Shown here one piece after another: positions 11,166-48,181 of a stretch of 64,000 nucleotides of DNA. The stretch is from Deltaproteobacteria bacterium. Lineage in GTDB: Bacteria > Bdellovibrionota > JACOXK01. Numbering within the stretch: the stretch's first letter is position 1; the number at the start of each line of letters is the position of its first letter. The notes under the pieces are model-generated. The model was given only the letters and a program-made list of their open reading frames with translations, ran no database searches and was not told the origin of the DNA. Location: contig JACPKQ010000016.1 in NCBI GenBank assembly GCA_016186995.1, positions 5,627 to 69,626 on the forward strand, in the 5' to 3' direction. A program made the position numbers and the translations under genes.

Positions 11166-12485
11166 ATGAAAAGGATGAGGTTGCTTAAAGGAGGCAAGGG
11201 CTTTGCCTATTCCCTAAAAAGAATAATAAAATTAGGTGTTTACTCAAGTTTAAGCTCTGTTTTTGCCTTAAGCTTATATGCCAATTATCGCCATAAATCA
11301 AAAATAGATGGATTTAAAGAATTTAAGCAGATTAAAGAGGTAACGCAAACTCTCACTAATACCTTTGCTGAAACCGTCACAGAACAACTTTCACAACACC
11401 TCCAAGTTAATCCTCAAAAATTTGAAACCTTATCAGATAAAGGGAAAATAAGATTTTTAGAAAATCTTCTTAACGATCCTGAAGGAAGGGTTTCTCAAAA
11501 TTTTAAAGTACCTAAAAATCTTAAAAACCAAGTGCTTTTTTGGTTTAAAGTTTTTAACATTTATTCAAATACAGATATTATTCTTCACAATATTAACGAA
11601 CCTTGGAAGATTTATACCGTTGTTGATACCTCAGGACTTTCGGGGAAAGAACGCTTCCTCAAAGTAAGGGAAGCTCTTAAACAGTTTCCACAATATCAAA
11701 ATCAAATTCGTCAACAGCAAGGAATGAAAAACTCAGTTGCTTTTGCTCTTGAAAAATCGGGCCGCTACATGAAAAATATGGAAAAGATTTTTAGAGAAAA
11801 CAAATTGCCTGTAGAACTTGTAAGACTTCCTATTGTAGAATCTTCTTTCAATCCTCAAGCTTATTCTAAGGTAGGTGCTGCAGGACTTTGGCAATTTATG
11901 AGAAAAACAGGAAAACACTTTTTAGAGAGTATTAATACTCATATTGATGAAAGACTCAGCCCATTTAAAGCAACTGAGGCAGCTGCACAACTTTTAAAAG
12001 AAAATTTTCAAATTTTGGGATCATGGCCTCTGGCCGTTTCTGCTTATCACCATGGACCTGGCCTCATCCTTAAAGCCAAAAAGGTTCTTGGAACAAATGA
12101 CCTTGGGGTCATGATCTCAACATTTAACCACCCTCAATATCAATTTGCTTCTAAAAACTACTACACTGAGTTTTTAGCTGCTGTTTATACTGAGAAATAC
12201 CATGACAAACTCTTTGAAGATTTAGAAAAAGAAAAACCCCTCAAATACGACGATGTTATTCTGGGATACTCTATGCGTGTAAAAGCAATCATGGACATTT
12301 GTCGTATTTCTTTAGAAGAACTTAAACTCTATAACCCAGACCTCAAAACCCAAGCTTTTCAATCAAGTTATTATTTACCAGAAAACCACTGGTTAAAACT
12401 CCCTCAGGGTAAGAAAAAATACATGGATCAGTTCCATAAAGAAGCTGAAGAAGCCAGAAAATTTATGGAAGGATTAAAATCTTAA
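11166..12485 (+). CDS. lytic murein transglycosylase (SLT domain, MltD-like)
   Basis: VESSFNPQAYSKVGAAGLWQFMRKTG matches the SLT catalytic motif (ES-x-FNP ... AGA-x-GLMQ). Confidence 0.7.
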   Translation: MKRMRLLKGGKGFAYSLKRIIKLGVYSSLSSVFALSLYANYRHKSKIDGFKEFKQIKEVTQTLTNTFAETVTEQLSQHLQVNPQKFETLSDKGKIRFLENLLNDPEGRVSQNFKVPKNLKNQVLFWFKVFNIYSNTDIILHNINEPWKIYTVVDTSGLSGKERFLKVREALKQFPQYQNQIRQQQGMKNSVAFALEKSGRYMKNMEKIFRENKLPVELVRLPIVESSFNPQAYSKVGAAGLWQFMRKTGKHFLESINTHIDERLSPFKATEAAAQLLKENFQILGSWPLAVSAYHHGPGLILKAKKVLGTNDLGVMISTFNHPQYQFASKNYYTEFLAAVYTEKYHDKLFEDLEKEKPLKYDDVILGYSMRVKAIMDICRISLEELKLYNPDLKTQAFQSSYYLPENHWLKLPQGKKKYMDQFHKEAEEARKFMEGLKS

Positions 12486-12510
12486 AATGGCATAATAACA
12501 AGCTTGCTTC

Positions 12511-12586
12511 TGAATTGGGGGCATATTTTTTGCTCCTAAACGTGCGCAAAAAACAGCGCCCCAATTCTCTCATGGATTTGAATTCC
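12511..12586. repeat. 74-bp hairpin-forming repeat (copy 1), inverted relative to the copy at 19634..19707
   Basis: gcttctgaattgggggcatattttttgctcctaaacgtgcgcaaaaaacagcgccccaattctctcatggattt. Its reverse complement is identical to 19634..19707. It is internally palindromic (gggggcatattttttgc / gcaaaaaacagcgcccc). Confidence 0.8.
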
Positions 12587-14430
12587 TATGGTAGAAAAAG
12601 TGTTGCGTAGCCTGGTGGAAAATAAAGTGTTGTGAGCCCTCTAAAAAATCCGTCTTTAGAATAGAAAGAAATAACTTCCTCACCTTGGGGAATGTTTAAA
12701 AAGCTCATCCGATGATGTCCTTTGACATCTGTGTTTTGACTTAAAAAATCAATTCCTCTTTCACGCATGTAAAAGTTAAAAGATACGTTGTTTGTTGTAT
12801 AAACTCGAAGCTCTTCATTAAAGAAAGAAAAATCTGCCCACAAATTACCTGCTTGGGGATTAAGTGGTAGTGGAAGTTTTTGATCTTCTAAAGAAAAAAG
12901 TGAGGGTAAATAAACAAAACTCAAACTTGGTTTATATTTTATATTTCCTAAAAAGTATTCTGGGTGTTCGAGCTCCAACTCTACAAAATCTTGAAAGGTT
13001 GCAATAGGACCTAAAGAAAAAGAACCTTCTTCATTTGTTTGTGTTTGAACAGGGTATCCTGCAACCCTCACTTGTACTTGAGTAACCCCTCCTTCATTTT
13101 CATTTCTTACAAGAGAAGTTTTTAAAACCTTTCCTTTTAGATAAATAGGGCTTTTCTCTTGAAGTACAAGTTCTGTCACTATGCCCTCTTTATGAGAGAA
13201 TCTTATAAAACCTATAAACTCTTGCCCTGCATAAGCCTCAAGAGTCCACATGCCTTCTTGTACAAAAGAAAAAGTAAAAATCCCTTCTTGAGATGATAAA
13301 GACTCTTCTCCACTTTCTTTGAGAACAAGCCTTACCCCTTTAAGGGGGAATCCAAATTTATCTAAAACCTGCCCATGAAGTTGGTTTGTATTTTCTTTAC
13401 GATCCACTAAAGCGACATCAACATATCGGCTGGTGTCCATGTAAAGTGGTACTCTTTGAACAACTTCTTTATTATTGAGAATTTCAAGATAACCATCAAA
13501 ATAATAAAGCTCATCAATATAGTAAAAGCCTTCTAAATTTGTTTTAAGAATAATATCTGTTCCTTCTAACCTTAGCTCAACGTGAGGAGCTGGTGTTGTA
13601 TAAGGATTAAGAGAAGAATATCCATTGAGTACTCTTCCAGAAAGAGCATAACTTTTTGGCTTATGCTGACCTATAAATAAATAAACATTTTTTAAATCTT
13701 CTTCTAAGTTAACAGGGTTAGCAGAATATACAGCTGTTGTTCTTAATGGATAAGATTCTCCCGTTTTAGGAGATTTCTTATCACTAAAATAACGGGCCAC
13801 AAGATGCCCTTGAACTTTTTTAGAAAACATAAATGAAAATCGAGAAACACCCTTTTCTAAAATATGGTGAGCAAGAAGGCGCGAGGTTGGTTTAGGAAGG
13901 CCGTCGGAACCGACGTCATCGTATAAACCAACCTCAAAATGACCCACATCATTTGTGTCGCGATTGTAATCGATCACCTGTCCTGAAATTATCCACTGCG
14001 CTTTTTGGGTCACGACTTGCGGTAGGAAAGTTTTTTTATTTTCCAAATTTTGCGTAGCAACCACAAGTGGGGTTTGGTCAGTACTTTGAGGGCTTGTTTG
14101 GGTTGTGGCTACAATTGTTTGCGGTGTCAGATGATCAAGGCTTTTTTGCAAATATCCTAGTTCGAAATTATTTCTTACACGATAAACCCGAGCTAATGCA
14201 TAATGATCAACACTATCAACAACAGTATTGAGAGGTTTTATATTTTTAATATTTTTTTCAAAGTTATTATACTCACCTTGAAGTACTAAACTCTGTTTTC
14301 GAATTTTTGTTTTGATATTTTTAACAAGTGGGGTTTTAAAATAAAGAAGTCCGGCAGCAGGCACCGCGAGCGGTACAAAAAGAAGAAACACAAGGAACTT
14401 CAACTTAAGATATTTTTCAATCGTCACCAA
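12586..14430 (-). CDS. large secreted protein with carboxypeptidase-regulatory-like beta-sandwich repeats
   Basis: 614 aa with an N-terminal signal/anchor. Recurrent GxVLD/GKVLK...V.V.G segments suggest Ig-like/CarD-like folds. No catalytic motif seen. Confidence 0.5.
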   Translation of the reverse strand: MVTIEKYLKLKFLVFLLFVPLAVPAAGLLYFKTPLVKNIKTKIRKQSLVLQGEYNNFEKNIKNIKPLNTVVDSVDHYALARVYRVRNNFELGYLQKSLDHLTPQTIVATTQTSPQSTDQTPLVVATQNLENKKTFLPQVVTQKAQWIISGQVIDYNRDTNDVGHFEVGLYDDVGSDGLPKPTSRLLAHHILEKGVSRFSFMFSKKVQGHLVARYFSDKKSPKTGESYPLRTTAVYSANPVNLEEDLKNVYLFIGQHKPKSYALSGRVLNGYSSLNPYTTPAPHVELRLEGTDIILKTNLEGFYYIDELYYFDGYLEILNNKEVVQRVPLYMDTSRYVDVALVDRKENTNQLHGQVLDKFGFPLKGVRLVLKESGEESLSSQEGIFTFSFVQEGMWTLEAYAGQEFIGFIRFSHKEGIVTELVLQEKSPIYLKGKVLKTSLVRNENEGGVTQVQVRVAGYPVQTQTNEEGSFSLGPIATFQDFVELELEHPEYFLGNIKYKPSLSFVYLPSLFSLEDQKLPLPLNPQAGNLWADFSFFNEELRVYTTNNVSFNFYMRERGIDFLSQNTDVKGHHRMSFLNIPQGEEVISFYSKDGFFRGLTTLYFPPGYATLFLP

Positions 14431-14564
14431 AGCCCTCTACCTTATTTTTATCACATCCAGGTTGGATATTCAAAAAATTTTCTTATGAATAATCATTTTT
14501 ATGAATAATCACAGGATATCCACAATGGTGCACTTGATTAATACAGTTCATAAGGATAAATGGT

Positions 14565-15509
14565 TTGGGGATGACAAGCATTATGAACAAATACTTAGAT
14601 GGAAAAAGATATTACTCCTTTGGACAACATCTTAAAGAACACTTTGGTGAGAAAGTTTATAAAGTTTCTTTGGATGGGGGATTTACTTGTCCCAACCGGG
14701 ATGGCACTTTAGGGCATGGTGGTTGCACATTTTGTAGCCAAGATGGTTCTTTAGCTCCAGGGGCTGATCCTTACATTGGACTCAAAGAACAAATTGAAAA
14801 AGGAAAAGTTTTTCTCGGTCAAAGGTATGGTGCTAAGAAATTTTTAGCTTATTTTCAATCTTTTTCAAATACCTATGGCGATGTTTTAGAACTTGAAAAA
14901 AAATATCGACTTGCTTTAAATCAAAAAGATATTGTAGGGCTTTCAGTTGCGACCCGCCCTGATTGCGTTCCTGATAAAACACTTGACCTGATAGCTGACA
15001 TTTCAAAAGATCATTACACCTGGTTAGAATTTGGGCTTCAAACGATGCATGATAATATTAATAAATCTTTAAACCGTCTTCATACTTTTAAAGACTTTGT
15101 ATCGGCTGTTGAGCGGGCTCACAAAAGAAATTTAAGAATTTGTGCTCATATTATTCTTTTTCTACCCGGAGAAACTAGAAAGCACATGGAAGAGACCATT
15201 CAGACCCTTTCCAAAATGCCTGTAACAGGCATTAAAGTACATCTCCTTCATGTTATTAAAAAAACAGCCCTTGCCTCCCAACATGCCAAGGGAGAAATCA
15301 GCCTTCCCTCGCAAAAAGAATATGTTGAAACCGTGGCTGATTTTGTAGAGCTTTTACCCCCTCATCTTATTATTCAAAGACTTACAGGGGAAACCTCTAA
15401 AGAGGAAATGATCGCCCCTCTGTGGGCTCTTAACAAAAATCAAATACTTAAAGAAATTAATGATACCCTTATTCAAAGAAATACTTGCCAAGGAAGCCGT
15501 TTCTATTAA
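14565..15509 (+). CDS. radical SAM protein, TIGR01212/YhcC-like
   Basis: Cys cluster CPNRDGTLGHGGCTFC near the N-terminus and a ~310-aa size typical of this family. Confidence 0.7.
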   Translation: MGMTSIMNKYLDGKRYYSFGQHLKEHFGEKVYKVSLDGGFTCPNRDGTLGHGGCTFCSQDGSLAPGADPYIGLKEQIEKGKVFLGQRYGAKKFLAYFQSFSNTYGDVLELEKKYRLALNQKDIVGLSVATRPDCVPDKTLDLIADISKDHYTWLEFGLQTMHDNINKSLNRLHTFKDFVSAVERAHKRNLRICAHIILFLPGETRKHMEETIQTLSKMPVTGIKVHLLHVIKKTALASQHAKGEISLPSQKEYVETVADFVELLPPHLIIQRLTGETSKEEMIAPLWALNKNQILKEINDTLIQRNTCQGSRFY

Positions 15510-15544
15510 AAAATAAATAGCTAGTTTAACGAATAGGAGGTGTT

Positions 15545-15982
15545 ATGAGAAAAATATTTTTTTTAATTTTAACGAGCTGCATGCTTTTAAGTCTTTCAAT
15601 TTGGGCTGTTGATATTGATTGTGATGTGTGCGGAATGGTCATTAAAGATAAAGCTCCAAATCACTTTATTCTTAAAAAAGCAGTAGCTTCTGAAAAAGCT
15701 CTCAATGCATGCTCAATCCCTTGTGTAAAAAAGGCAAAAAAAAGCTCGGCTCAATATACAAAGATAGAGGTTCCAGATTTTAATCATCCAGGAAAGTTTC
15801 TGGACGGTGAGAAAGCTTTTTTCCTTATCAAAAGCAAAAATGTTAAAAAAGACTTAGGTGATATGGTAATGCCTCCTCATGTGGTGGCATTTACAACAAA
15901 AGAAGAAGCTCTTGCTTCTCAGAAAAAATATGGTGATGGCGAAGTGGTGCAAGGATTAGAAAAAGCTTTAAAAGAGATTTAA
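15545..15982 (+). CDS. NosL-like / YHS-like metal-binding lipoprotein (putative copper chaperone)
   Basis: Signal peptide, then DIDCDVCGMVIKDKAPNHF (C-x2-C-G-M motif as in NosL/YHS domains). The C-terminus VVAFTTKEEALASQKKYG is NosL-like. Confidence 0.4.
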   Translation: MRKIFFLILTSCMLLSLSIWAVDIDCDVCGMVIKDKAPNHFILKKAVASEKALNACSIPCVKKAKKSSAQYTKIEVPDFNHPGKFLDGEKAFFLIKSKNVKKDLGDMVMPPHVVAFTTKEEALASQKKYGDGEVVQGLEKALKEI

Positions 15983-15996
15983 TAAAAATAAGTTTT

Positions 15997-16449
15997 ATGA
16001 AAAAAATACTAAAAAATATCATACTCGGTATGGGTTGTTTGCTCCTTCTCGTCTCATGTGGGCCCATGAATAAAAAACTAGCAAATCTTGATTCTGACAC
16101 TTCTTCTTTTGTAAAACCGGGTGAGGGCAAAAATCTTTCAAAAAATGCTCAGTTTTATATTTATAACTCACTTTTTCATTCGAAACCTATTTTAGGAGAT
16201 AATGAAATCACAATGAGATTTGTTTACGCCAATACTTTGGTATCACTTTCTGACAAAGCAAAGATCACCGTTATTTATAGCATGCCTGAAATGCCGCAAA
16301 TGGGTGAAGAAAAAGAAAATGCCACATTACAATCTGATGGAACTTTTTTAACAACACTTTTTTTTTCGATGGCAGGCCGTTGGCATATTATTTTAAAAAT
16401 AGAGGATGACTCCGTTCAGGATGAATATGCTTTTGAAATTACTCTCTAA
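15997..16449 (+). CDS. lipoprotein, FixH/YtkA-like domain
   Basis: Lipobox LLLLVSCG. The C-terminal motif GRWHIILKIEDDSVQDEYAFEITL is shared in form with the ORF at 17384 (GDWKFDISIARDQNDTFGKTININK). Confidence 0.35.
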   Translation: MKKILKNIILGMGCLLLLVSCGPMNKKLANLDSDTSSFVKPGEGKNLSKNAQFYIYNSLFHSKPILGDNEITMRFVYANTLVSLSDKAKITVIYSMPEMPQMGEEKENATLQSDGTFLTTLFFSMAGRWHIILKIEDDSVQDEYAFEITL

Positions 16450-17374
16450 GAAATATGTTCTTATTTTTACTTTTTTTTCCCTCATTTGGTCTGGATGGCT
16501 CCTAGCCTCAAGTTGTCATGGTGGAGGAGGCGGAGAAACCCTTGTTTTACCCTCCGGACAACGTTATCAATTCGGCTTTTCAACCTCTTATCGCTTCATT
16601 CAAGGTTCTTTTGATTCTTATGGTGGGTATACTTCTCAGTCTAAAAACTCTTCCATCAGCTCCACAACCACGTCATGGAGTGGTGGGGTAAGGCTGAGTG
16701 AGTCGTGGCAACTTTCATGGGCCCTTCCTCTTACTTATAATAAATATGTTTATTCAGGAAAAGATCACTCAAGGGCTTCTTTTGGGGATCCAGTTTTTGA
16801 AACAAGATATACATTTTTAGAAGATGTCCGTTTTTTATGGTATCAGCCAGAGCTTAGTTTTTATGGTGGAATACGACTTCCTTTTGGAACTTCAACTTAT
16901 AATTCATCTGACCCTTATGGAGCTGACGTTGTTGGGGAAGGTCTCAGTTTTGTTCACAGTGGAATGAGTGCCGCCAAACTTTTCCGTCCTTTTAAACTTA
17001 CAGTGAATTGGATTTTTTACTACCCATTAGAAAAAGAAGTGGACCAGATTCGAAATAGAAGTGTGGCTCCCTATGATTTTAAAAGTGGCAATCGTATTGT
17101 GCTCAATGGGGTTGCAAATTATCTCATTAGCAATCACTGGGCGACAGCCCTCGGTATCAAAGGATTTTGGATTTTAAAATCAAAAAAAGATCAAAATGTT
17201 GTAGAAGGATCTTCCGCACGATTATTTTCAATGACAGCTTCTCTTGGTTATGCGTACGATGTCTCATGGGGAATGGCTTTAAATTATGAGACCCCATTTC
17301 CATTTTATAAATATGGCGTTAATCAACCCAATTCCCACACACTTTCACTGTCCGTTAATTATGGGATATTTTAA
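16406..17374 (+). CDS. outer-membrane beta-barrel protein (porin/channel-like)
   Basis: Signal peptide, alternating amphipathic strands rich in Tyr/Gly/Ser, and an aromatic C-terminal residue (…NYGIF). Confidence 0.45.
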   Translation: MTPFRMNMLLKLLSKKYVLIFTFFSLIWSGWLLASSCHGGGGGETLVLPSGQRYQFGFSTSYRFIQGSFDSYGGYTSQSKNSSISSTTTSWSGGVRLSESWQLSWALPLTYNKYVYSGKDHSRASFGDPVFETRYTFLEDVRFLWYQPELSFYGGIRLPFGTSTYNSSDPYGADVVGEGLSFVHSGMSAAKLFRPFKLTVNWIFYYPLEKEVDQIRNRSVAPYDFKSGNRIVLNGVANYLISNHWATALGIKGFWILKSKKDQNVVEGSSARLFSMTASLGYAYDVSWGMALNYETPFPFYKYGVNQPNSHTLSLSVNYGIF

Positions 17375-17383
17375 GGAGGTTTT

Positions 17384-17779
17384 ATGAAAAAAATTCTATT
17401 CGTAATGAGTTTTGTGATGTTGGTCATCGTACCACCTATCATTGCCTCTGATGAGGGTGCCTTAGATCCTGCAGAGTTAACAGTTCAGGAAATATATCAA
17501 GTGAGTGGCAACTGGTCTTCTCTCAAACGCGGGTGGAATACTTTGATCCTAAAAATTTCGGATTCTCAAAACCAATCTATATCTCAAGCCAAGGTTACAG
17601 TGAAGTATGATATGGCCACAATGCCTATGAATCCACCAGATAATCCTGTCGTAGAAAAAGAGGGTGGAGTTTATGAAAAAAGTATCTTTTTGGGAATGGG
17701 GGGAGATTGGAAATTTGATATTTCCATTGCCCGAGATCAAAATGATACATTCGGCAAAACAATAAATATTAATAAATAA
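17384..17779 (+). CDS. FixH/YtkA-like periplasmic protein (paralog of 15997..16449)
   Basis: Signal peptide. MPMNPP plus the C-terminal GGDWKFDISIA motif parallel the upstream lipoprotein. Confidence 0.35.
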   Translation: MKKILFVMSFVMLVIVPPIIASDEGALDPAELTVQEIYQVSGNWSSLKRGWNTLILKISDSQNQSISQAKVTVKYDMATMPMNPPDNPVVEKEGGVYEKSIFLGMGGDWKFDISIARDQNDTFGKTININK

Positions 17780-17856
17780 CCCACTCCCACACGAGCTTTC
17801 CGTTAATACAGAATTGAGGAAAAAAGGGGTTTGTGTTATGTTAGCAAGCGATTCCC

Positions 17857-19611
17857 ATGAAAAAAGAGTCTCTTCTTAAAAATCTGTGGCCTTTATTGGT
17901 AAAAAACAAAAAATCCTATTTTGCTGGCATTTTCTTTTTGGTTACAACCGTTGTTTTAAGTGTTCGCATTCCTTATTTTCTTAAAGAAGCTATTGATGCT
18001 ATTCGTATTCAAGACAGTACAACTATCCAAAAAATGGCTTTTCTTATCATAGGCGCTTCTTTTATCTTTTCCATAACACGTGTGTTTTCTAGAATTCTCA
18101 TGTTCAATCCAGGAAGACGAATTGAGTATGAAATTAGAAATAAATTTTTCGAAAAACTTTTGAATTCACCCCTTAAATATTTTCAAACAACAAGCATTGG
18201 TGATCTTATGTCACGTGCCACCAATGATCTTCATTCATTTAGAGCCATGATTGGTTTTGCAGGGTTAGGGCTTTTCAATGCTGTTCTTACTTTTGCTTTT
18301 GTTTTAGTTTCTATGTTTAGTTTAAGTTGGAAGCTAACATTGGTTTGTATTATTCCATTTCCTATTCTTATTTATGGTCTTAAAAACATTATTAAAAAAT
18401 TCTATCTCTATGCCAATGCATGCCAAGAAGGAATGGCAGATTTAAGCACAAAAGTTCAAGAAAACTTTAATGGTATTCATGTTATTAAGTCTTATGTTCA
18501 AGAACATAACAAATATGAAGACTTTAAAAAACTGAATCAACAATATTTCTCAGATTGTTTAAGACTAGCCAAAGTTGAAAGTGTCATCTTTCCCCTTTTT
18601 AGAGATCTCCCAAATCTCATACTACCTCTTATTCTTGTAACAGGTGGTTATTCTATTATTGGTGGGAACCTTTCTTTAGGAACTCTTGCTGCTTTTGTGA
18701 TTTATCTCAAACAACTTGCAAACCCAACCATGACTTTTGGATGGGTTATTAACATTTTACAACGCGGAAGAAGTGCCTTTCATCGCATTATAGAAGTCAT
18801 TCACGCCCCCATTGAACTAGAAAATACTCAAACTCAAAACCCTATTGTAGGAGAAGTTGAATTTCAAAATGTGAGTTTTCGCTACTTAGAAAATCAGGAA
18901 AACATTCTTGAGAATATTTCTTTTAAACTCAAACCAGGACAATCATTGGGCATTCTTGGAAAAACAGGGGCTGGTAAATCAACCCTTGTAAACCTTTTAA
19001 TGAGAAATGAAAAACCCGTATCTGGAAATGTTCTTTTAGATGGAAAACCCATTGACCACTATGCTTTAAAAGCTTTGAGAGATTCTATAGGCTACGTACC
19101 TCAGTCCTCGTTTCTCTTTTCAAAAACGCTTAGGGAAAATATTTATTTTGGGCTCAAAGAAGAAAATGAAAATGAAAATCTTTTAAACAAAGCCATCCAG
19201 AAAAGCCACTTGGCATATGATCTTGACCAGCTCTATCAAGGTGTACAAACAGTTGTTGGGGAAAAAGGAGTTACTCTTTCAGGAGGACAAAAACAGAGAA
19301 CAGCCATATCACGTGCCATCATTGGAAGCCACCAAATTTATATTTTTGATGACGCTTTTTCTTCTGTAGACCATGAAACAGAAGAAGAAATTTTAAAAAA
19401 TCTAAAAGATATCTTTCATGATAAAATCTGTATTTTTATTTCTCATAGAATTTCAACCTTAAAACTGTGTGACAAAATTATTTATCTTAAACAAGGTGGT
19501 ATTTCTGAAAGAGGCACCCATGAAGAACTGTTAGAAAATAAAAAAGATTATTTTAGAACTTTTACACTACAGAATTTGGATGGGCTGGATCCTTCGATAG
19601 GCTCTGGATGA
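17857..19611 (+). CDS. ABC exporter, fused permease-ATPase (half transporter 1)
   Basis: Six-TM N-terminal domain, Walker A GKTGAGKST, signature LSGGQKQR, Walker B IYIFDDAFS. Confidence 0.85.
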   Translation: MKKESLLKNLWPLLVKNKKSYFAGIFFLVTTVVLSVRIPYFLKEAIDAIRIQDSTTIQKMAFLIIGASFIFSITRVFSRILMFNPGRRIEYEIRNKFFEKLLNSPLKYFQTTSIGDLMSRATNDLHSFRAMIGFAGLGLFNAVLTFAFVLVSMFSLSWKLTLVCIIPFPILIYGLKNIIKKFYLYANACQEGMADLSTKVQENFNGIHVIKSYVQEHNKYEDFKKLNQQYFSDCLRLAKVESVIFPLFRDLPNLILPLILVTGGYSIIGGNLSLGTLAAFVIYLKQLANPTMTFGWVINILQRGRSAFHRIIEVIHAPIELENTQTQNPIVGEVEFQNVSFRYLENQENILENISFKLKPGQSLGILGKTGAGKSTLVNLLMRNEKPVSGNVLLDGKPIDHYALKALRDSIGYVPQSSFLFSKTLRENIYFGLKEENENENLLNKAIQKSHLAYDLDQLYQGVQTVVGEKGVTLSGGQKQRTAISRAIIGSHQIYIFDDAFSSVDHETEEEILKNLKDIFHDKICIFISHRISTLKLCDKIIYLKQGGISERGTHEELLENKKDYFRTFTLQNLDGLDPSIGSG

Positions 19612-19633
19612 CAGGGAACAAATGAATCCATGA

Positions 19634-19707
19634 GAGAATTGGGGCGCTGTTTTTTGCGCACGTTTAGGAGCAAAAAATATGCCCCCAATTCAGAAGCAAG
19701 GTTGTAT
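19634..19707. repeat. 74-bp hairpin repeat (copy 2), inverted relative to 12511..12586
   Basis: Exact reverse complement of the 12511..12586 element. Confidence 0.8.
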
Positions 19708-19715
19708 TTAAAATA

Positions 19716-19770
19716 CTGGATTCCCGCCTCCGCGGGAATGACAGAAGGGGCCTGCAGGGATGACAGAGGA
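19716..19770. repeat. palindromic element 'ctggattcccgcctccgcgggaatgacagaa...gggatgacagagg'
   Basis: Perfect palindrome ggattcccg/cgggaatcc around a short loop. Same family as 1835..1893, 31145..31173 and 37839..37894, and related to the cores of 50204..50362 and 54170..54335. Confidence 0.7.
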
Positions 19771-19773: not shown

Positions 19774-21537
19774 ATGAGTATGAGCGAAAATAAAAACTTT
19801 CTCACAGATAAAAAAAAAAAAAAAAAATTTTGGGGGTTTTTAAAACCCTATAAAAAAACTATATTCTTAAGTCTTGCCCTTATCTTTTGCATTGCAAGTT
19901 TAGGGCTGATTCAACCCCTTCTTATTAAGAAAGCGATTGATGATTACATAGCACACAAGGACGTATCAAGCCTTCTTGTGGTTTCCTCTACACTTTTGCT
20001 TGTGATCGGGGTCGAATACGGTCTTCGTTGTATGCAAGTTTTTCTCATGCAAAAAACTGGAGAAGAAACAATTCGAGATATCCGCAATGCACTTTATGCA
20101 CACATTCAAAGTCTCAAAACAGATTTTTTCTCAAAACAACCTATTGGACGCCTTGTCACCCGATGCACAACAGACATTGAAGCCCTTACAGAAATGTTTA
20201 CCTCAGGGCTTGTCGCTATCCTTGCCGATCTTTTTATGATTATAGGTATTGTTTTTATGCTTTTTTATCTGAGTCCTCAAATGACTCTGGCGAGTTTTCT
20301 TGTACTTCCCTTTCTTGTTATAGCAGCCCTTTATTTTCAAAAAAAGATGCGCTCTGCTTTTAGAAACATTCGAAAATACGTTGGAAATTTAAATGGATAT
20401 CTTCAAGAAAACCTAAATGGCATGGATGTTGTGCAGACCTTTAATCAAGAAGAACAAGCCTTTAAAGAGTTTAATGATCTCAACTTTAAAATTATGGGCT
20501 TTCACTTTCAAAATATTACCTATGACGCCATTCTTTACTCTATTGTTGAAGCCTTAAGTGCTATTACAATGGGGTTGATCATTTGGTTTAGTTCTGGAAG
20601 TCTTATTCAAGGGTTGATTACTGCAGGAACTCTTGTTGCTTTTATAGAATATATTCAAAGGTTTTTTATTCCTATTCGAGACTTGTCACAAAAATATGCC
20701 ATTATGCAATCAGGTTTGGCCTCCCTTGAAAGAATTTTTGCTCTTCTTGAAACAAAAGAGTTGATTCCTGTTTCTGCACAAGCTTTGATTCCTCACAAAG
20801 TAGAAGGATACATAGAATTTAAAAATATTTCTTTTTCTTACAAAGAAAATGAGCCTGTTTTAAAAAACGTTTCTTTCAAAATACAAAATGGTGAAAAAGT
20901 AGCCTTTGTAGGCCCTACAGGAAGTGGTAAATCAACCATTATGAAACTGATCACACGCCTTTATGATGTTAACGATGGGGAAATTTTGCTTGATGGTATT
21001 GATGTTCGAAACTTAAATCTAAAGTTTTTAAGAAAAAATGTGTGCCTTGTTTCTCAAGACTTTTTCATTTTTTCTGGAAGTGTTTCAGAAAATGTAAGTT
21101 TAGGAGATCCTTCTATTACAAAAGAAAACGTTATAGAAGCCTGTAAGGCTGTTGGTATTCATGAATTTATTCTTTCACTTACGCAAGGGTATGGCACAAA
21201 ATTAGCCGAAAAAGGAAGTAATATTTCTGTGGGCCAACGACAACTCATTTCTTTTGCAAGGGCTTTTGCCTTTAACCCGAAAGTACTTATTTTGGATGAA
21301 GCCACATCTAATATTGATACCCATACAGAAATTTTGATTCAAAAAGCTTTGGAAAAATTGATTGAAGGAAGAACGTCCATGATTATTGCACACCGCCTTT
21401 CAACCATTAGAAATGTAGACCGTATTTTTGTTCTTCATAAGGGAAAAATTATTGAAAATGGATCTCATGAACAACTAGTCAGAGAAAAAGGGCTTTATCA
21501 CAAACTTTATTCACTTCAATTCCAACCTCATTTATAA
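19774..21537 (+). CDS. ABC exporter, fused permease-ATPase (half transporter 2), A18 tract in codons 12-18
   Basis: Start chosen at MSMSENKNFLTDKKKKKKFWGFLKPYKK. The upstream part of the ORF (from 19630) is a translation of the repeats. Walker A GPTGSGKST, signature VGQRQL, Walker B LILDEATS. Confidence 0.8.
   Translation: MSMSENKNFLTDKKKKKKFWGFLKPYKKTIFLSLALIFCIASLGLIQPLLIKKAIDDYIAHKDVSSLLVVSSTLLLVIGVEYGLRCMQVFLMQKTGEETIRDIRNALYAHIQSLKTDFFSKQPIGRLVTRCTTDIEALTEMFTSGLVAILADLFMIIGIVFMLFYLSPQMTLASFLVLPFLVIAALYFQKKMRSAFRNIRKYVGNLNGYLQENLNGMDVVQTFNQEEQAFKEFNDLNFKIMGFHFQNITYDAILYSIVEALSAITMGLIIWFSSGSLIQGLITAGTLVAFIEYIQRFFIPIRDLSQKYAIMQSGLASLERIFALLETKELIPVSAQALIPHKVEGYIEFKNISFSYKENEPVLKNVSFKIQNGEKVAFVGPTGSGKSTIMKLITRLYDVNDGEILLDGIDVRNLNLKFLRKNVCLVSQDFFIFSGSVSENVSLGDPSITKENVIEACKAVGIHEFILSLTQGYGTKLAEKGSNISVGQRQLISFARAFAFNPKVLILDEATSNIDTHTEILIQKALEKLIEGRTSMIIAHRLSTIRNVDRIFVLHKGKIIENGSHEQLVREKGLYHKLYSLQFQPHL
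19810..19827 (+). repeat. A18 homopolymer inside coding sequence (encodes KKKKKK)
   Basis: gat(a)18ttttggggg read directly from the sequence. Confidence 0.9.
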
Positions 21538-22859: not shown

Positions 22860-23862
22860 ATGGAAACACTTGCAGGTTTTTTAGCAGAACTCACAAACAA
22901 TGTGCTTCCCTTTTGGGCTTATAGTCTCATTGCCATTCTACTTATTTTGGGTGTTGTGGCTCTTCCATTTGCAGGCATTGCCACTTATCTGGAAAGAAAG
23001 GTTTCGGCTGATATTCAAGCACGCATTGGCCCCAATCGTGTGGGCCCCTTTTATTCTTGCCCCCATGATTGTTATTGTAGGAAGTTTCGCTTCTTTTGTT
23101 GTTATTCCTTTTTCAGAAAAAATTATTATTTCAGATTTAAACATCGGTTTTCTTTATCTTCTTGCGATGGGTTCTCTTGTAGGGTTGGGTATTATTATGG
23201 GAGGTTGGGCCTCTAACAACAAATGGTCTCTTTTAGGCGGAATGCGTTCTGCAGCCCAAGTTATTTCTTATGAAATACCAAGTGCTTTAGCAGGCCTTTC
23301 AGTTGTGCTTGTTTCTGGAAGTTTGAGTTTTGGAACAATTGTAAGAGAGCAATCTCACTTGAACTGGTATATTTTTCATAATCCTTTTCTTTTTATCAAT
23401 TTTTTTATTTTTTTCACTGCTGCTTTAGCCGAAGTCAATCGAACACCCTTTGATATTCCAGAAGCAGAATCAGAACTTGTTGGAGGGTTCCATACAGAAT
23501 ATTCAGGTATGCGTTTTGCTATTTTCTTTATGGCAGAATACGCTGATATTTTTGTCATTTGTGCTATTTCTTCTGCTCTCTTTTTAGGTGGATGGTACTT
23601 ACCTTTCATTCCACTTGATGCTCTTTCTACAAACTTAAAAGTTTTTGTTCAGTTTTTTGTTGTCACTACAAAGACCCTCATTCTTTTTTATGTTGTCATG
23701 TGGTTAAGATGGACTTTGCCACGATATCGTGTGGATCAGCTGCTTGCTATTTGCTGGAAGTTTTTAACCCCACTTGCTTTTACAATGTTGATCTTTACAG
23801 CTCTTTGGGTTCTTGTTTTTCAAGGACGTGGGCTTGTACAAATGATTCAGGAGTTATTTTAA
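22860..23862 (+). pseudogene. nuoH: NADH-quinone oxidoreductase subunit H (cluster 1), disrupted by an out-of-frame internal deletion
   Basis: Frame 1 reads METLAGF...ARIGPNRVGPF and then degenerates. The NuoH sequence resumes in another frame (ORF 22900..23862: ...FILAPMIVIVGSFASFVVIPF...GGWASNNKWSLLGGMRSAAQVISYEI...). Relative to the intact copy at 32452, about 28 codons (LGLFQPIADGIKF...KILF) are missing at ~23046. Confidence 0.6.
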
Positions 23863-24358: not shown

Positions 24359-24656
24359 TCTTTATTTCTTCCTTACTATAAGTGCTCTTCTCTTCAGCTT
24401 GGGTATTACCGCTATTTTTTATAGAAAAAATATTATCGCAATTCTTATTGGGGTGGAACTTGTTCTTAATGCAGCTTCTTTAAATTTTGTCGCTTTTTCA
24501 AGATTTACACAATCTCATCTTCATGGCCAAGTCTTTGCTTTATTTATTATTATCATTGCAGCTGCTGAAGCAGCCGTTGCACTGGCTATTGTTTTAAGAC
24601 TTTTTCAAACAAAAGAAACCATTGATGTGGAGGAAGCAAACGCGCTTAGAAATTAA
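24348..24656 (+). CDS. nuoK: NADH-quinone oxidoreductase subunit K (cluster 1)
   Basis: 102 aa; ILIGVELVLNAASLNFVAF...IIIAAAEAAVALAIVL is the NuoK/ND4L signature. Confidence 0.85.
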   Translation: MINNLYFFLTISALLFSLGITAIFYRKNIIAILIGVELVLNAASLNFVAFSRFTQSHLHGQVFALFIIIIAAAEAAVALAIVLRLFQTKETIDVEEANALRN

Positions 24657-26818
24657 TGGACATGATCAAACTTTCATTACTTATCGTAACTCTTCCACTC
24701 ATAGCTTTCACCATTCAAATTCTTGTGGGTAAGCGCCTACCTCGAGATGGAGATTTTATTTCTCTTGCAAGTATTTTTGTTTCTTGGATTTTATCCCTTA
24801 AGCTTTTGTGGAATGCTTTTTCTCTTTATGATCCACAACTTAAAATCACAAAAGAATGGCTTTGGTTTGATTTGGCGCGGTTTTCAAGTGATTTAGACAT
24901 TTTTGCTTTAAAACTTCCTGTGGGCATTCTTTTAGATAATGTTTCAATTCTTATGCTTGTGGTTGTGACAACGGTCAGTTTTCTTGTGCACTTTTATTCA
25001 ATAGGTTATATGAAGGGTGACGCTCATTATTCACGATTTTTTGCCTATCTTTCTCTGTTTTCTTTTTCCATGCTTGGGCTGGTACTGACAGACAATCTTT
25101 TTGTTCTTTATATTTTTTGGGAGCTTGTTGGGGTGTGCTCTTATCTTTTGATTGGTTTTTGGTTTGAAAAGAGAAGTGCTGCTAATGCTTGTAAGAAGGC
25201 TTTTTTAACAACACGTGTGGGAGATATTGGCCTGTTCATTGGTATCATGATGGTCTTCACCACATTAGGAAGTGTTTCTTATTCCTCAATCTTTGAAGCG
25301 AAAGCTTCCGGGCTTTTTTCTGGTGTTTTCGGAACGATTGCCGGGCTTTGTATTTTTATGGGTGCTGTTGGGAAAAGTGCTCAGTTCCCACTTCACATTT
25401 GGTTACCTGATGCCATGGAAGGCCCAACACCGGTAAGCGCTCTTATTCACGCTGCCACCATGGTTGCCGCTGGTGTTTATCTTGTGGTTCGTCTTTTTGT
25501 CTTTTTTACTCCCGATGCGCTTCTCACAATCGCTTATGTGGGTGGATTCACCGCTTTGTTCGCCGCCACGATGGCTCTAACCCATCAAGATATAAAAAAA
25601 GTTTTAGCTTATTCAACTGTTTCCCAATTAGGGCTTATGATGCTCGCCTTAGGTGTGGGTGCCTACACAGCGGGTTTCTTCCATCTTGTGACTCACGCTT
25701 CTTTTAAAGCTTGTCTCTTCCTTGTTTCAGGAAGCGTGATTCATGCTCTTCATGGTGAACAAAATCTTTTTAAAATGGGTGGGCTTCGGAAAAAAATGCC
25801 CCTTACCTTTGGAACGTGCCTTATAGCAACACTTGCTATTGCAGGAGTTCCTTTATTTTCAGGTTTTGTGAGTAAAGATCAAATTTTAGCAGGCACTCTC
25901 TCTTTTGCTTATAACCATCCTCCACATTCTCTTCTTGCTTTTTTCGGTTTTGGGGCTTCGGCTCTTACAGCTTTTTATATGTTTCGGTTACTCTTTCTAA
26001 CTTTTTTTGGAAAACCACGCGATGAAAAACTTTATTCTCATGCACATGAATCATCTTTTGTAATAACACTTCCCCTTATTATTTTAGCTATTCTAAGTTT
26101 GGGGTTTATCTACGAAAAACAAAATTGGTTTGAACACCTTATTCAAAAGCCTCAACTCATTGCTATAAAATCAAGTGTTGTTGTGGCACCTAATTCCGAG
26201 ACACTACCTATTTTTAAAAAAATCAAAGAAAAAACAAAAGAGAATGTGGATCCTTCGGCTACGCCTCAGGATGACAGAGAGGTTCTCGGGGATGACGTAA
26301 AAGATCAACCACAAGTTGCCTATGTTGAGCCTCATAAAACAGAAAATGAAAAGAAAGCACACACACAAGCTATGGTTGCCTCTGTATTCTTTGCCTTTTT
26401 TTCTATTTTCTTAGCATGGCTCTTTTACATTCAAAGAGTTATAGATCCGGAAAAAGTTTCAGAAAAATATAAATCTGTTTATAATACATTAGTAAATCTT
26501 TATTGGATTGATGAGGCTTATCAATTTCTTTTTATTGGACCACTTATTAAAATAAACAATTTTCTCTATAAAAAAATAGATTCAGAAATTATTGACCAAG
26601 GGTTTATCGATAGGAGCGCTTTAATCACCGTCAAAACAGCACACGCGCAAGGCGATTTTGATAATACTGTCATTGACCGTGGTGTTGATGGCACAGCCCA
26701 CACTGTGTTTTCGGGGGGACTAAAACTTGTTCGAATCCAAACAGGCCAAGTTCAAGATTATCTTAAGATTGGTTTAGGTCTTGTGATTATTTTACTGATT
26801 GCATTTATACTGATGTAG
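24656..26818 (+). CDS. nuoL: NADH-quinone oxidoreductase subunit L (cluster 1), with ~100-aa charged insertion
   Basis: WLPDAMEGPTPVSALIHAATMVAAGVYL is the antiporter-like core. 720 aa versus 625 aa for the cluster-2 copy. The extra low-complexity segment KKIKEKTKENVDPSATPQDDREVLGDDVKDQPQVAYVEPHKTENEKK lies before the C-terminal helix. Confidence 0.85.
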   Translation: MDMIKLSLLIVTLPLIAFTIQILVGKRLPRDGDFISLASIFVSWILSLKLLWNAFSLYDPQLKITKEWLWFDLARFSSDLDIFALKLPVGILLDNVSILMLVVVTTVSFLVHFYSIGYMKGDAHYSRFFAYLSLFSFSMLGLVLTDNLFVLYIFWELVGVCSYLLIGFWFEKRSAANACKKAFLTTRVGDIGLFIGIMMVFTTLGSVSYSSIFEAKASGLFSGVFGTIAGLCIFMGAVGKSAQFPLHIWLPDAMEGPTPVSALIHAATMVAAGVYLVVRLFVFFTPDALLTIAYVGGFTALFAATMALTHQDIKKVLAYSTVSQLGLMMLALGVGAYTAGFFHLVTHASFKACLFLVSGSVIHALHGEQNLFKMGGLRKKMPLTFGTCLIATLAIAGVPLFSGFVSKDQILAGTLSFAYNHPPHSLLAFFGFGASALTAFYMFRLLFLTFFGKPRDEKLYSHAHESSFVITLPLIILAILSLGFIYEKQNWFEHLIQKPQLIAIKSSVVVAPNSETLPIFKKIKEKTKENVDPSATPQDDREVLGDDVKDQPQVAYVEPHKTENEKKAHTQAMVASVFFAFFSIFLAWLFYIQRVIDPEKVSEKYKSVYNTLVNLYWIDEAYQFLFIGPLIKINNFLYKKIDSEIIDQGFIDRSALITVKTAHAQGDFDNTVIDRGVDGTAHTVFSGGLKLVRIQTGQVQDYLKIGLGLVIILLIAFILM

Positions 26819-26827
26819 GAGGACTTT

Positions 26828-28393
26828 ATGCATAGTTGGTTTGGACAACACACTCTTTCGCTGATTACTTTTATTCCCATCATAGGAATATTACTTGTAT
26901 TAAGTATACCCAAAACAAAAGAAACGGTTCTAAAATATACAGCCCTTGCTTTTGCAACTACTCCTTTTGTTCTTTCTCTTTATGTTTACCAGTATTTTGA
27001 TTTGACTTCTTCTAAAATGCAGTTTGTAGAGCAACTCAACTGGATCCCAAGTTTTAATATTGAGTATTTTTTAGGAATCGATGGGCTTTCACTTCCTATG
27101 ATTCTTTTAACAGGACTTCTCTCTGCTCTTTGCATTATTGCATCATGGAATATTAAAAAAGGTCTTAAGGGTTATCTTGCTCTCTTTTTACTTTTAGAAA
27201 CAGGAATGCTTGGGGTTTTTTGTGCTCTTGATTTCTTTCTTTTTTTTATTTTTTGGGAAGTCATGCTTCTTCCTATGTATTTTCTTATTGGTATTTGGGG
27301 TGGTCCTAAAAAAGAATATGCAGCCATCAAGTTCTTCCTTTATACACTTGTTGGATCTGTTCTTATGCTTGTAGCTTTGATTGCTTTTTATCTCAACACA
27401 GATCCCCACACTTTTAATCTTATTAAACTTTCAGAACCTGGTATTTTAGTAGGCAATCAAATTTCACTTTTTGGAATCTCCTTATCTTTCCACAGTTTTA
27501 AAATACTCCTGTGGATATTTTTGTTTATCGGATTTGCTATTAAAGTCCCACTCTTTCCATTTCATACATGGTTGCCTTTAGCACACGTTGAGGCACCTAC
27601 TGCTATTTCTGTAATTCTTGCAGGCGTTCTTTTAAAAATGGGAACTTACGGATTGCTTAGAATTTCCTATCCTATTTTACCAGGAGAAACTCTTTACTTT
27701 ATTAAAGATATTCCGCTTCTTCCTCTTTTAGGGGTGGTGAATATTATTTATGGCGCCTGCTGTGCCATGGCCCAAATTACTTTACCTGAAGAAAAAGGTG
27801 GGAACGATCTTAAAAAACTGATCGCTTACTCCAGTATCAGCCATATGGGGTATGTCATTTTAGGAATGAGTGCCATGACAAGTGAAGCTATGCACGGAGC
27901 TGTGTTTCAAATGTTTAATCACGGAACTATCACTGCCATGCTCTTCTTACTTGTAGGTGTCATTTATGACCAAGCTCACCATAGAAAAATTGATGGCTTT
28001 GGAGGTTTGGCAACAAAAGTACCCGTGCTCACAGGTATTGTATCAGTTGCCTTTTTTGCGGCACTGGGTTTACCAGGGCTTTCTGGTTTTATCTCTGAAG
28101 CTCTTGTATTTTTAGGATCTTTTAAATCAACTCTCCCAGGGCTTCGTACTTTTACAGTCTTAGCTACTTTGGGTATTATTTTAAATGCTGCTTTTTTACT
28201 GTGGGCATTGCAAAAAATATTTTTAGGCACACTCAACACTCAATATGAAAACTTTCAAGATATGACAAAACGAGAGCTTATTACACTTGTTCCACTCACT
28301 GTGGTTGTCATTTTTTTAGGCGTGTATCCAACACCGATGCTTGATCTTATGCAACGAACTTTAAATAATTTATTGCACTTAATGGGAGTTTAA
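26828..28393 (+). CDS. nuoM: NADH-quinone oxidoreductase subunit M (cluster 1)
   Basis: FPFHTWLPLAHVEAPTAISVILAGVLLKMGTYGLLR is the NuoM/ND4 motif. Confidence 0.85.
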   Translation: MHSWFGQHTLSLITFIPIIGILLVLSIPKTKETVLKYTALAFATTPFVLSLYVYQYFDLTSSKMQFVEQLNWIPSFNIEYFLGIDGLSLPMILLTGLLSALCIIASWNIKKGLKGYLALFLLLETGMLGVFCALDFFLFFIFWEVMLLPMYFLIGIWGGPKKEYAAIKFFLYTLVGSVLMLVALIAFYLNTDPHTFNLIKLSEPGILVGNQISLFGISLSFHSFKILLWIFLFIGFAIKVPLFPFHTWLPLAHVEAPTAISVILAGVLLKMGTYGLLRISYPILPGETLYFIKDIPLLPLLGVVNIIYGACCAMAQITLPEEKGGNDLKKLIAYSSISHMGYVILGMSAMTSEAMHGAVFQMFNHGTITAMLFLLVGVIYDQAHHRKIDGFGGLATKVPVLTGIVSVAFFAALGLPGLSGFISEALVFLGSFKSTLPGLRTFTVLATLGIILNAAFLLWALQKIFLGTLNTQYENFQDMTKRELITLVPLTVVVIFLGVYPTPMLDLMQRTLNNLLHLMGV

Positions 28394-28399
28394 AAAGTC

Positions 28400-30696: not shown

Positions 30697-31144
30697 TCAG
30701 AAATACATTGAAGAAATTTTTTCTAGATACCCTAACAAGCGGGCAGCAACCCTCCCACTTTTAACGCTTGCACAAGAAAGATTTGGATACATTTCAAAAG
30801 AAGCCTGTGTGTGGGTTGCAGAGCTTATTGGGGTTTCCCCTATGGAAGTTCATGAAACAGCAAGTTTTTACACCCTGTATTATTTAGAACCTGTGGGCAA
30901 AAATAAAATTAAACTATGCACTAATGTTTCTTGCATGCTTTTAGGGGCTAAAAAAATTGAAAAAACCTTAAAAAGAAAATTGGGTTTAAAAAAGAAAGGC
31001 ACTACAGAAGATAAAAAATTTCATTTTGAAACAGCAGAATGTTTAGGTTATTGCGATAAAGCCCCTGTGATGCAGATAAATACCGAAACATTTGAAAAAA
31101 TTTCTGATGAAAAGGTAGATGAAATTTTAAAAAAATATGAATAG
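30665..31144 (+). CDS. nuoE: NADH-quinone oxidoreductase subunit E (24 kDa, [2Fe-2S])
   Basis: Cys ligands in CTNVSCMLLGAKK...TAECLGYCDKAPVMQIN. Confidence 0.8.
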   Translation: MIKQKKMKNTDQKYIEEIFSRYPNKRAATLPLLTLAQERFGYISKEACVWVAELIGVSPMEVHETASFYTLYYLEPVGKNKIKLCTNVSCMLLGAKKIEKTLKRKLGLKKKGTTEDKKFHFETAECLGYCDKAPVMQINTETFEKISDEKVDEILKKYE

Positions 31145-31173
31145 TGGATTCCCGCCTTTGCGGGAATGACATT
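31145..31173. repeat. palindromic element ggattcccgcctttgcgggaatgacattgg between nuoE and nuoF
   Basis: 9-bp perfect stems ggattcccg/cgggaatcc; family of 19716..19770. Confidence 0.7.
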
Positions 31174-37909: not shown

Positions 37910-37910
37910 A

Positions 37911-47932: not shown

Positions 47933-48181
47933 CAGAGGGGCCGTCCGCAATGACAGAAACTTCGAGTCTATGTGCAGATGACCTTGGCCTGTCATCGCGA
48001 GGGTTCTTAAAGAACCCGTGGCGATCTCAACACGCAAGTGTTGTCCTAGAATTGCTAAAGCAATTCTAGGAGATTGCTTCGCTACGCTCGCAATGACACG
48101 TATCCATGAGAGAGTAGGGACTGGGTGTTTTGTTGCACGTTCAGGAAACAAAACACCCTCCCTACTCAGAACCCAAGTCTG
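47920..48181. repeat. tandem mosaic of three palindromic element types
   Basis: cagaatgacagagg/gcaatgacagaaacttcgag (compare 7917-7940), then tgtcatcgcgagggttcttaaagaacccgtggcgatc...gcttcgctacgctcgcaatgacacg (family of 5396..5480), then gagagtagggactgggtgtttt...aaaacaccctccctactcagaacccaag hairpin (compare 7942-7990). Confidence 0.7.

Follow-up and report, generated by a model that had tools for sequence, protein, structure and literature searches.

A lineage-specific intergenic hairpin repeat as the probable origin of identical inverted arms around a 7-kb gene block in a Bdellovibrio-related genome

A stretch of 64 kb (the window) from contig JACPKQ010000016.1 of assembly GCA_016186995.1, an uncultured metagenome-assembled genome (MAG) that is compact and contains 35 % GC, carries two identical inverted arms of 76 bp on either side of a 7-kb gene block. 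The arms, here called copies A and B, are probably two members of a lineage-specific, non-autonomous, dispersed intergenic hairpin repeat. Their generation or homogenisation would be recent, the work of copy-and-paste of the core or of gene conversion among members of the family, and they would have landed by happenstance in two gaps 7 kb apart and in opposite orientation; with such landing sites the bracketing of the block would be incidental.

The sequence at 12503-12578 (+ strand; CTTGCTTCTGAATTGGGGGCATATTTTTTGCTCCTAAACGTGCGCAAAAAACAGCGCCCCAATTCTCTCATGGATT) is the exact reverse complement of 19625-19700, and these 76 bp are the longest common substring of both sites. The exact inverted repeat announced in the preliminary description was thus real, although its coordinates (12511-12586 and 19634-19707) were about 8 bp off and its length is 76 bp, not 74 bp. 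In a repeat search of the window the pair extended to 86 nt at 97 % identity (12493-12578 and 19625-19710); it is by far the longest inverted repeat present, the runner-up having 57 nt at 77 %. By comparison with shuffled sequences, motif searches with parts of the repeat are expected to give no match by chance. The element had been described as hairpin-forming, and stable folds were obtained on both strands as DNA (−15.5 and −16.6 kcal/mol; z = −3.8 and −5.4) as well as in the proposed RNA fold (−25.9 kcal/mol; z = −3.0). Exact identity between A and B ends abruptly, at CTTG on the 5′ side and at GGATT on the 3′ side, and the sequences beyond, which are conserved in the family, are far more diverged than the core. 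Edges as sharp as these fit a conversion patch or a copying unit of the size of the core.

The family was surveyed in the window by motif searches, by direct reading and with a covariance model (CM) built from copies A, B and D. Five copies were found, at 7.9, 12.5, 19.7, 48.1 and 53.9 kb, none of them within conserved coding sequence, which bears out the earlier suggestion of a dispersed family. Divergence among the five is graded and includes deletion derivatives: two copies are identical, one is full-length but diverged and two are deleted, and members other than A and B are 60-80 % alike. Copy A (+; core 12503-12578, CM match 12496-12585, 112.5 bits) probably occupies about 12479-12585, and copy B (−; core 19625-19700, CM match 19618-19707, 113.5 bits) about 19615-19714. 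Copy D (48094-48184, −; 83 bits, E = 5.6e-20) is full-length and represents a second subfamily; it begins at CTTG, 4 nt past a stop codon, that of a TPR gene, whose position is conserved in a relative (L017, introduced below), and forms a 21-bp hairpin (−19.9 and −20.5 kcal/mol as DNA). Copy C (7935-8001, −; 34.3 bits, E = 1e-6) has lost the loop region, has chimeric arms and no longer folds (z = −0.1). Copy E (53839-53900, +) is a remnant with a weak CM match (E = 0.4) and a 20-mer that agrees with one mismatch; it retains the 5′ frame, TCTCATGGATTTGAAT and, from the hairpin, the 3′ arm alone. Both partial copies named in the preliminary description are therefore genuine, that near 53.9 kb being a 3′ part and that near 7.9 kb internally deleted, but the full-length diverged copy D had been overlooked.

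In the unit, whose core measures about 76-107 bp, the hairpin of about 20 bp encloses the loop TCCTRAACGTGC; it is preceded by the single-stranded 5′ flank CTTGSTTCT and followed by the 3′ flank TCTCATGGAT. The A/B type and the D type share the loop TCCTRAACGTGC and the flanks CTTGSKTTCTGA and TCTCATGGAT, while five of the 20 stem pairs are altered on both sides with pairing kept, as in GAATTGGGG/CCCCAATTC of one subfamily and GAGTAGGGA/TCCCTACTC of the other. Such covariation in the stem, together with a conserved loop and conserved flanks, is what would be expected of a hairpin recognised by its shape, loop and flanks. Integron attC sites were considered and set aside on inspection of the copies, the flanks of which do not fit RYYYAAC/GTTRRRY. 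The sequence family is new, but small intergenic repeats of this kind, which carry a hairpin, are non-autonomous and form part of a mosaic array, are well known.

Evidence on the age of the copies came from DNA of relatives: L009 (89 % amino acid identity), L010 (56 %), L012, L013 and L015 (54-59 %) and L017 (79 %). Copy A takes up all 100 bp between the convergent stop codons of a gene for an SLT lytic transglycosylase (end 12485) and a gene for a secreted protein of 614 amino acids (end 12586), and its 5′ edge abuts or overlaps the SLT stop codon. Copy B lies in the 162-bp intergenic gap between two ABC exporter genes (ABC1 and ABC2), antisense to the operon. The placement of the arms given earlier, one between convergent genes and the other between the exporter genes, was thus confirmed. 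At the site of copy A the SLT gene and the orthologue of the 614-residue protein converge at −9 bp (L013), +2 bp (L012) and +20 bp (L015), against 100 bp in the window. At the site of copy B the two exporter genes of L010 overlap by 4 bp, and in L009 they are separated by a spacer of about 55 bp with three ggatgacag motifs and without the 76-bp unit. At the site of copy D, 9 bp separate the TPR gene from its convergent neighbour in L017, against 249 bp in the window; only the hairpin TGTCATTCTGAACGAAGTGAAGAATATAT, of the SRM type discussed below, is conserved there, and the 249 bp of the window comprise copy D and two more hairpins, inserted exactly 5′ of this hairpin. All three sites that could be tested (A, B and D) are therefore empty in relatives. 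The gene order of L010 is a gene of 557 codons (−), radical SAM (+), a gene of 321 codons, ABC1 and ABC2. The comparison of synteny that had been proposed as a check on inversion thus gave the order and orientation of the window, with the element absent at the compared sites. Since the genes have the same order and direction in relatives that lack the element, the window shows the ancestral orientation of the block and the repeats are later insertions; the order SLT(+), 614-residue protein(−), radical SAM(+) … ABC1(+), ABC2(+) is older than the repeats.

These results bear directly on the proposal made in the preliminary description, that identical arms allow recombination to flip the 7-kb segment, swap promoter contexts and rewire transcription of the 614-residue protein gene and of the exporter pair, so that two states would coexist in the population. 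The perfect inverted identity of 76 bp does exceed the minimum for RecA-dependent recombination in Escherichia coli, which Shen and Huang are said to have placed in 1986 at about 25-30 bp, and perfect identity between A and B amid a family likeness of 60-80 % could mean ongoing exchange between the two. A switch of this kind is nevertheless very improbable. Every relative recovered has the ancestral orientation, and both arms are insertions missing from relatives. No invertase, integrase or transposase was found in Pfam scans of about 50 open reading frames (ORFs) of the window (nearly all of those of at least 100 amino acids outside two nuo clusters); these ORFs encode housekeeping functions only (GatC, RecG, patatin, TauE, nuo subunits, PilMNOQ, AroC/AroB, an iron/B12-type ABC importer, DksA, PriA, LptF/G and deformylase). 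No σ70-like site was seen in or beside either copy or at the segment edges. A flip of 12579-19624 would set ABC1 tail-to-tail with the SLT gene and ABC2 behind the 614-residue protein gene; ABC1 would thereby be uncoupled from ABC2, which it overlaps or adjoins in relatives, and ABC2 would be left to read-through from the 614-residue protein gene. Since inversion would split a co-transcribed exporter pair, it would be harmful rather than regulatory. Programmed inversion switches (Hin/Gin/Cin, FimB/FimE, invertible promoters of Bacteroides and Clostridioides, shufflons) likewise have inverted repeats around a segment, but their recombinase sites are short (14-30 bp) and enclose a promoter or the 5′ end of a gene, the serine or tyrosine recombinase is dedicated to them or encoded next to them, and the segments usually measure 0.2-2 kb and carry a promoter or alternative gene ends, whereas the block in the window has no recombinase, no promoter, eight intact housekeeping-type genes over 7 kb and repeats drawn from a dispersed family. 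The GC skew changes near 12-14 kb, does not return at 19.7 kb and shows no reversal confined to the block, a pattern that is uninformative for a recent inversion. Homologous recombination by RecA across 76 bp is possible in principle, and inversion is unsupported.

The limits of the unit and its relation to other repeats in the window are more intricate. Copies A, C and E have in common, on the 5′ side, TCTTRAAATGG followed after about 10 nt by AACAAS, and on the 3′ side TGAATYYCC. Copy A begins with the terminal motif aTCTTAAAATGG at 12479-12490, and the motif TTCTTRAAATGG also makes up the inverted termini of two of the composite elements of about 350-380 bp that were observed in the window: X1 (7677-8024), X2 (53955-54327) and the partial X3 (50185-50366). 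The ends of the composites are inverted copies of (TA)AGKTCTTRAAATGG, and each contains an internal hairpin of about 160 nt with small CCTGCGA-loop hairpins, behind which come an SRM-like hairpin and a module with CCATGARR. Their structure as RNA is pronounced (z = −8.2 and −6.8 for the folds); they gave no match in Rfam and lie in divergent promoter regions (RecG/gene of 197 codons, amidohydrolase/iron-B12-type ABC importer, gene of 260 codons/DksA); they could be miniature inverted-repeat transposable elements (MITEs) or structured RNAs. Copy C is the right subterminal part of X1, and X2 has the same frame without the hairpin core. The family is modular, and its core seems to be copyable or convertible on its own, which would leave only 76 bp identical between A and B.

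This kinship with the composites favours another reading, in which the repeat is a MITE of the classical type that depends for its movement on a transposase gene elsewhere, possibly one of the IS630/Tc1-mariner type, and in which copies A and B derive from X1/X2 as truncated or one-ended forms. X1 and X2 end in inverted (TA)AGKTCTTRAAATGG with TA just beyond each end, copy C forms a subterminal part of X1, copy A starts with aTCTTAAAATGG and has TA on both sides, and the sites are empty in relatives. We regard this as conceivable but rather unlikely. The 76-bp core lacks terminal inverted repeats, since the sequences at its ends, CTTGCTTCT and TCTCATGGATT, are not complementary and only the internal hairpin is palindromic; copy D starts at CTTG after the conserved stop codon and lacks the terminal motif; and identity between A and B spans the core only, not the putative ends. 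The TA that flanks copy A, X1 and X2 at either end is weak evidence and, in a genome of 65 % AT, would be diagnostic only with a precise empty site. The terminal 12-mer has about four chance matches (at most one mismatch) inside genes, and the scans of the window revealed no transposase. The repeat resembles Correia elements (CREE) and MITEs (ERIC, RUP, Nezha) in being small, non-coding and dispersed, with insertions in intergenic regions and at gene ends, internal-deletion variants and empty sites in relatives, and such elements can supply stop codons or change operon spacing; the definition of a MITE, however, requires terminal inverted repeats together with a target-site duplication; the 76-bp core lacks the former and none of the latter was established for it, whereas X1 and X2 have ends that resemble terminal inverted repeats.

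A function in RNA was weighed in the same way. The hairpin might be a selected element that acts as a bidirectional terminator or 3′-end stabiliser between convergent genes, and as an intra-operon attenuator setting the ratio of ABC1 to ABC2, after the manner of repetitive extragenic palindromic (REP) sequences in operons of E. coli. Copies A and D stand right after stop codons in gaps between convergent genes, the RNA hairpin is as stable as given above, its stem covaries with the structure kept, and a weak terminator-like pattern (12505-12523, then TATTTTTT) runs in the sense of the element. That pattern is, however, a wobble-rich stem of 8 bp that competes with the main hairpin. The preliminary description had proposed a check for transcription termination; an intrinsic terminator is a GC-rich stem-loop with a U-tract directly behind it, and the main stem has no U-tract on either strand (AAUUCUCUC follows on one, AAUUCAGAAG on the other), so that an intrinsic terminator was rejected on this ground. 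The orientation of the copies with respect to genes is inconsistent, B being antisense to the operon and C and E lying in divergent promoter regions; relatives do without the element, with gaps of 0-20 bp; deleted copies that do not fold persist; and no match was found in Rfam. An RNA element of this kind is accordingly judged decidedly unlikely. REP sequences and bacterial interspersed mosaic elements (BIMEs) of enterobacteria and pseudomonads offer a likeness in other respects: they too are short hairpins outside genes, in which the stem covaries and the flanks are conserved but asymmetric. They are found behind stop codons and, within operons, between genes; they cluster with other motifs into mosaics, and recognition probably takes place on the single-stranded hairpin. 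REP elements are also known to stabilise upstream mRNA (compare Ton-Hoang 2012, which PMC11893778 cites). They differ in having 20-40 nt and a 5′ tetranucleotide of the GTAG type, whereas the hairpin in the window has about 56 nt, a conserved loop of 12 nt and no such head. Its arms are not palindromic themselves, so that no REPIN doublet is formed, and no gene for a RAYT/Y1 transposase was found in the window.

The surroundings of the copies point to a mosaic. In four of the five copies a hairpin beginning with TGTCAT follows 2-11 nt past TCTCATGGAT on the same strand. Nineteen GTCAT hairpins with a stem of at least 5 bp are present in the window, against 5 ± 2 in Markov simulations, and about 13 of the 19 are convincing (1849-1890, 5395-5434, 5447-5477, 7903-7932, 19583-19614, 19716-19743, 26246-26276, 31144-31171, 47906-47934, 47990-48029, 48069-48098, 48778-48817 and 50263-50300). 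Some of them overlap coding sequence, namely the last codons and stop of ABC1, the interior of a nuo gene of 720 codons (26246-26276) and the start of the TPR gene. Copy B is flanked on both sides: TGTCATTCCCGCGGAGGCGGGAATCCAG (19716-19743, −) adjoins its 5′ side, and CTGTCATCCAGAGCCTATCGAAGGATCCAG (19583-19614, −; a match to the motif CTGTCATYC) lies 11 nt past its 3′ end. Copies C, D and E have such a hairpin on the 3′ side only, TGTCATTCTGAGCGTATGCGAAGAATATAA (7903-7932, −) 9 nt past copy C, TGTCATTGCGAGCGTAGCGAAGCAATCTCC (48069-48098, −) 2 nt past copy D and TGTCATTTCCGCTCTGAGG..GCTGGAATCCAG (53906-53945, +) 10 nt past copy E.

The hairpin TGTCATTCCCGCGGAGGCGGGAATCCAG is an exact dRS3 sequence (ATTCCC-N8-GGGAAT) and agrees at 26 of 28 positions with the Neisseria Transformation Sequence (NTS; CGTCATTCCCGCGMAVGCGGGAATCYRG). 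A second hairpin (31144-31171) is also an exact dRS3, differs from the NTS by three mismatches and is the only strict match to the published SRM expression. These are the two exact dRS3 matches of the window (19720-19739 and 31148-31167), with none expected by chance. Hairpins of the Ssn-related motif (SRM) are defined by HGTCWYN(0-2)YYVSBRHN(0-5)WNVSBRGN(0-2)RNCYNB, or by the NTS with at most one mismatch (PMC11893778); the agreement with the NTS, at two and three mismatches, lies beyond this limit and concerns the neighbouring hairpins, not the 76-bp unit. The hairpin CTGTCATCCAGAGCCTATCGAAGGATCCAG overlaps the last codons and the stop of ABC1 and is conserved in L009; from this shared position some SRM hairpins are judged to predate the 76-bp unit. 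In L009 itself (1835-1895) the spacer between ABC1 and ABC2 consists of three tandem CTGTCATCC heads on the minus strand with truncated or degenerate hairpins, which indicates that the growth and decay of SRM arrays at this junction do not depend on the 76-bp unit.

In Neisseria, dRS3 hairpins flank RS repeats of about 50-150 bp and build Neisseria intergenic mosaic elements (NIMEs), arrays that vary between strains (PMC1797815). The window has the same ingredients: units of 50-150 bp from several families alternate with hairpins of 20-30 bp in intergenic arrays, two of these hairpins being dRS3 exactly; copy B has the layout hairpin-unit-hairpin; and array length differs between close relatives, as told for NIMEs (PMC1797815). 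Together with other modules the units build mosaic arrays in almost every sizeable intergenic gap, resembling NIMEs and BIMEs, and the 76-bp unit behaves as the RS unit of a NIME-like mosaic. There are also differences. The host belongs to a different phylum and has 35 % GC against 52 % in Neisseria; in no copy is the unit flanked by dRS3 on both sides, and copy A has no hairpin; most hairpins of the window are richer in AT (TGTCATTGCGAG..., TGTCATTCTGAG...) and fail the dRS3 pattern; neither an ssnA gene nor a phage recombinase was seen in the window; and no sequence similar to the 76-bp unit was found in the public collections searched.

In Neisseria the enzyme of interest is SsnA, a GIY-YIG nuclease of 94 amino acids (cd10448) that binds NTS/SRM hairpins and cuts them as single-stranded DNA a few nucleotides upstream; its gene is typically flanked by SRMs, the layout NTS-ssnA-NTS resembles a mobile element, and NTS/SRM hairpins are known from many phyla (PMC11893778). 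One may see in the 76-bp unit and the TGTCAT hairpins the active building of NIME-like arrays by an Ssn-type single-strand nuclease in a Bdellovibrio-related lineage, with rare inversions as a by-product. New units would be pasted a few nucleotides 5′ of an SRM hairpin, the position of the SsnA cut in Neisseria; the perfect identity of A and B would mark the process as current; and rare RecA-dependent inversions between A and B would split the exporter operon and cause low-level heterogeneity in the population. We consider this extended scheme speculative and, as a whole, unlikely; six-frame and Pfam scans of the 64 kb revealed no ssnA or GIY-YIG gene.

For the less specific reading, a dispersed hairpin repeat whose copies bracket the block incidentally, the units would most likely have spread because an enzyme from another part of the genome recognises the hairpin in single-stranded DNA, or else by recombination at adjacent SRM hairpins. 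Its effects are probably passive, a stable hairpin being added to transcript 3′ ends and the spacer between ABC1 and ABC2 being lengthened, and the 76-bp homology would offer a substrate for rare RecA-dependent inversion or gene conversion. Several points weigh against this reading. The family rests on five copies within one contig, and the covariation on two independent full-length sequences only. With the CM, neither the rest of the window nor 32 kb of DNA from relatives yielded another copy; the pattern TTCTGARTWGGGR-N(21-51)-YTCTCATGGA gave only chance coding matches without the hairpin in 185,579 species genomes, metagenome contigs of the Joint Genome Institute (JGI) and viral contigs; and a blastn search with the 112-bp unit gave no match among plasmids and phages, so that the family was found in none of these collections. 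Rfam 15 gave no match in the window at the gathering threshold (best permissive match 15 bits, with a threshold at 97). The 5′ edge of copy A can be placed only within 12479-12503, no target-site duplication was established for the unit, no SRM hairpin adjoins copy A, and no mobilising enzyme was found in the 64-kb window. The hairpin may also have a functional role, for example in mRNA stabilisation or termination.

An origin of the identity, or of the linkage across the repeats, in the metagenome assembler was also considered, the sequence being a MAG contig (72,920 bp). The independent Logan assembly of SRR12113424 is interrupted within members of the family, which shows that the repeats trouble assemblers: the two ends (1 and 2097) of its 2.1-kb contig from the same population (L016; 100 % identity) fall within the hairpin of copy D and within X3, and these repeats thus fragment assemblies made with short k-mers. 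This contig holds no linkage information across the 76-bp arms; it does carry the 5′ half of copy D exactly. Each copy lies within unique sequence with gene order on both sides as in relatives, 76 bp is shorter than a read and than the large k-mers of assemblers, and a collapse would not yield two copies in opposite orientation with distinct flanks. An artefact is hardly credible.

The genes around the two copies were assigned by using Pfam, and the earlier gene calls (radical SAM, YtkA-like lipoproteins and two ABC exporters) agree with these assignments. The SLT lytic transglycosylase gene (11166-12485, +; PF01464) encodes a protein whose nearest named homologues, after a handful of uncultured relatives, are from Bdellovibrio (about 40 % identity). 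Convergent with it is the gene for the 614-residue secreted protein (12586-14430, −; CarboxypepD_reg-like), the orthologues of which in L010 and L015 are 43-44 % identical. The radical SAM gene (14565-15509, +) is followed, before ABC1 and on the same strand, by genes for two YtkA-like proteins and two unassigned ORFs. ABC1 (17857-19611, +; ABC_membrane and ABC_tran, with homologues found) and ABC2 (19774-21537, +) both encode half-transporters. The start of ABC2 was placed at ATG 19774, since the alignment with ABC2 of L010 (68 % identity) begins at residue 3; ABC2 of L009 starts at the identical ATGAGTATG. A coding reading of copy B, as an in-frame extension of ABC2 by 48 codons to ATG 19630, was rejected, the orthologues starting at the equivalent of 19774 and the extension being unconserved.

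Some further features of the window were observed. A run of 18 A (19810-19827) inside ABC2 encodes KKKKKK at codons 13-18 and is missing from the orthologues of L009 and L010, which read DKELSLKFW there; the L009 contig stops exactly at the corresponding position of ABC2, and a homopolymer of this length is a classic site for slipped-strand events, phase variation or assembly error. The homologue of NADH dehydrogenase subunit H (PF00146) is divided between overlapping ORFs in different frames (22860-23216 and 22900-23862; profile positions 2-40 and 50-298), which suggests a frameshift, whether a sequencing error, a pseudogene or recoding. Two sets of paralogous genes for nuoL/M/N-like antiporter subunits lie at 24656-29872 and 34424-39326; the direct-repeat families D1-D4 and D11 are conserved coding motifs of these genes and not mobile repeats.

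Recognition of the repeat explains several oddities of annotation at once, namely inflated intergenic gaps, the spurious 48-codon extension of ABC2, an apparently shortened C terminus of the SLT protein and contig breaks in independent assemblies, and it removes as unsupported the tempting description of a phase-variable 7-kb block. The window presents a compact, AT-rich, Bdellovibrio-related genome with few gaps, which are filled with NIME/BIME-like mosaics including hairpins close to the NTS. If the full genome does contain an ssnA homologue and hundreds of units, the organism would be a useful second system for the growth of dRS3/RS-type arrays, a question that has stood in Neisseria for more than 20 years.

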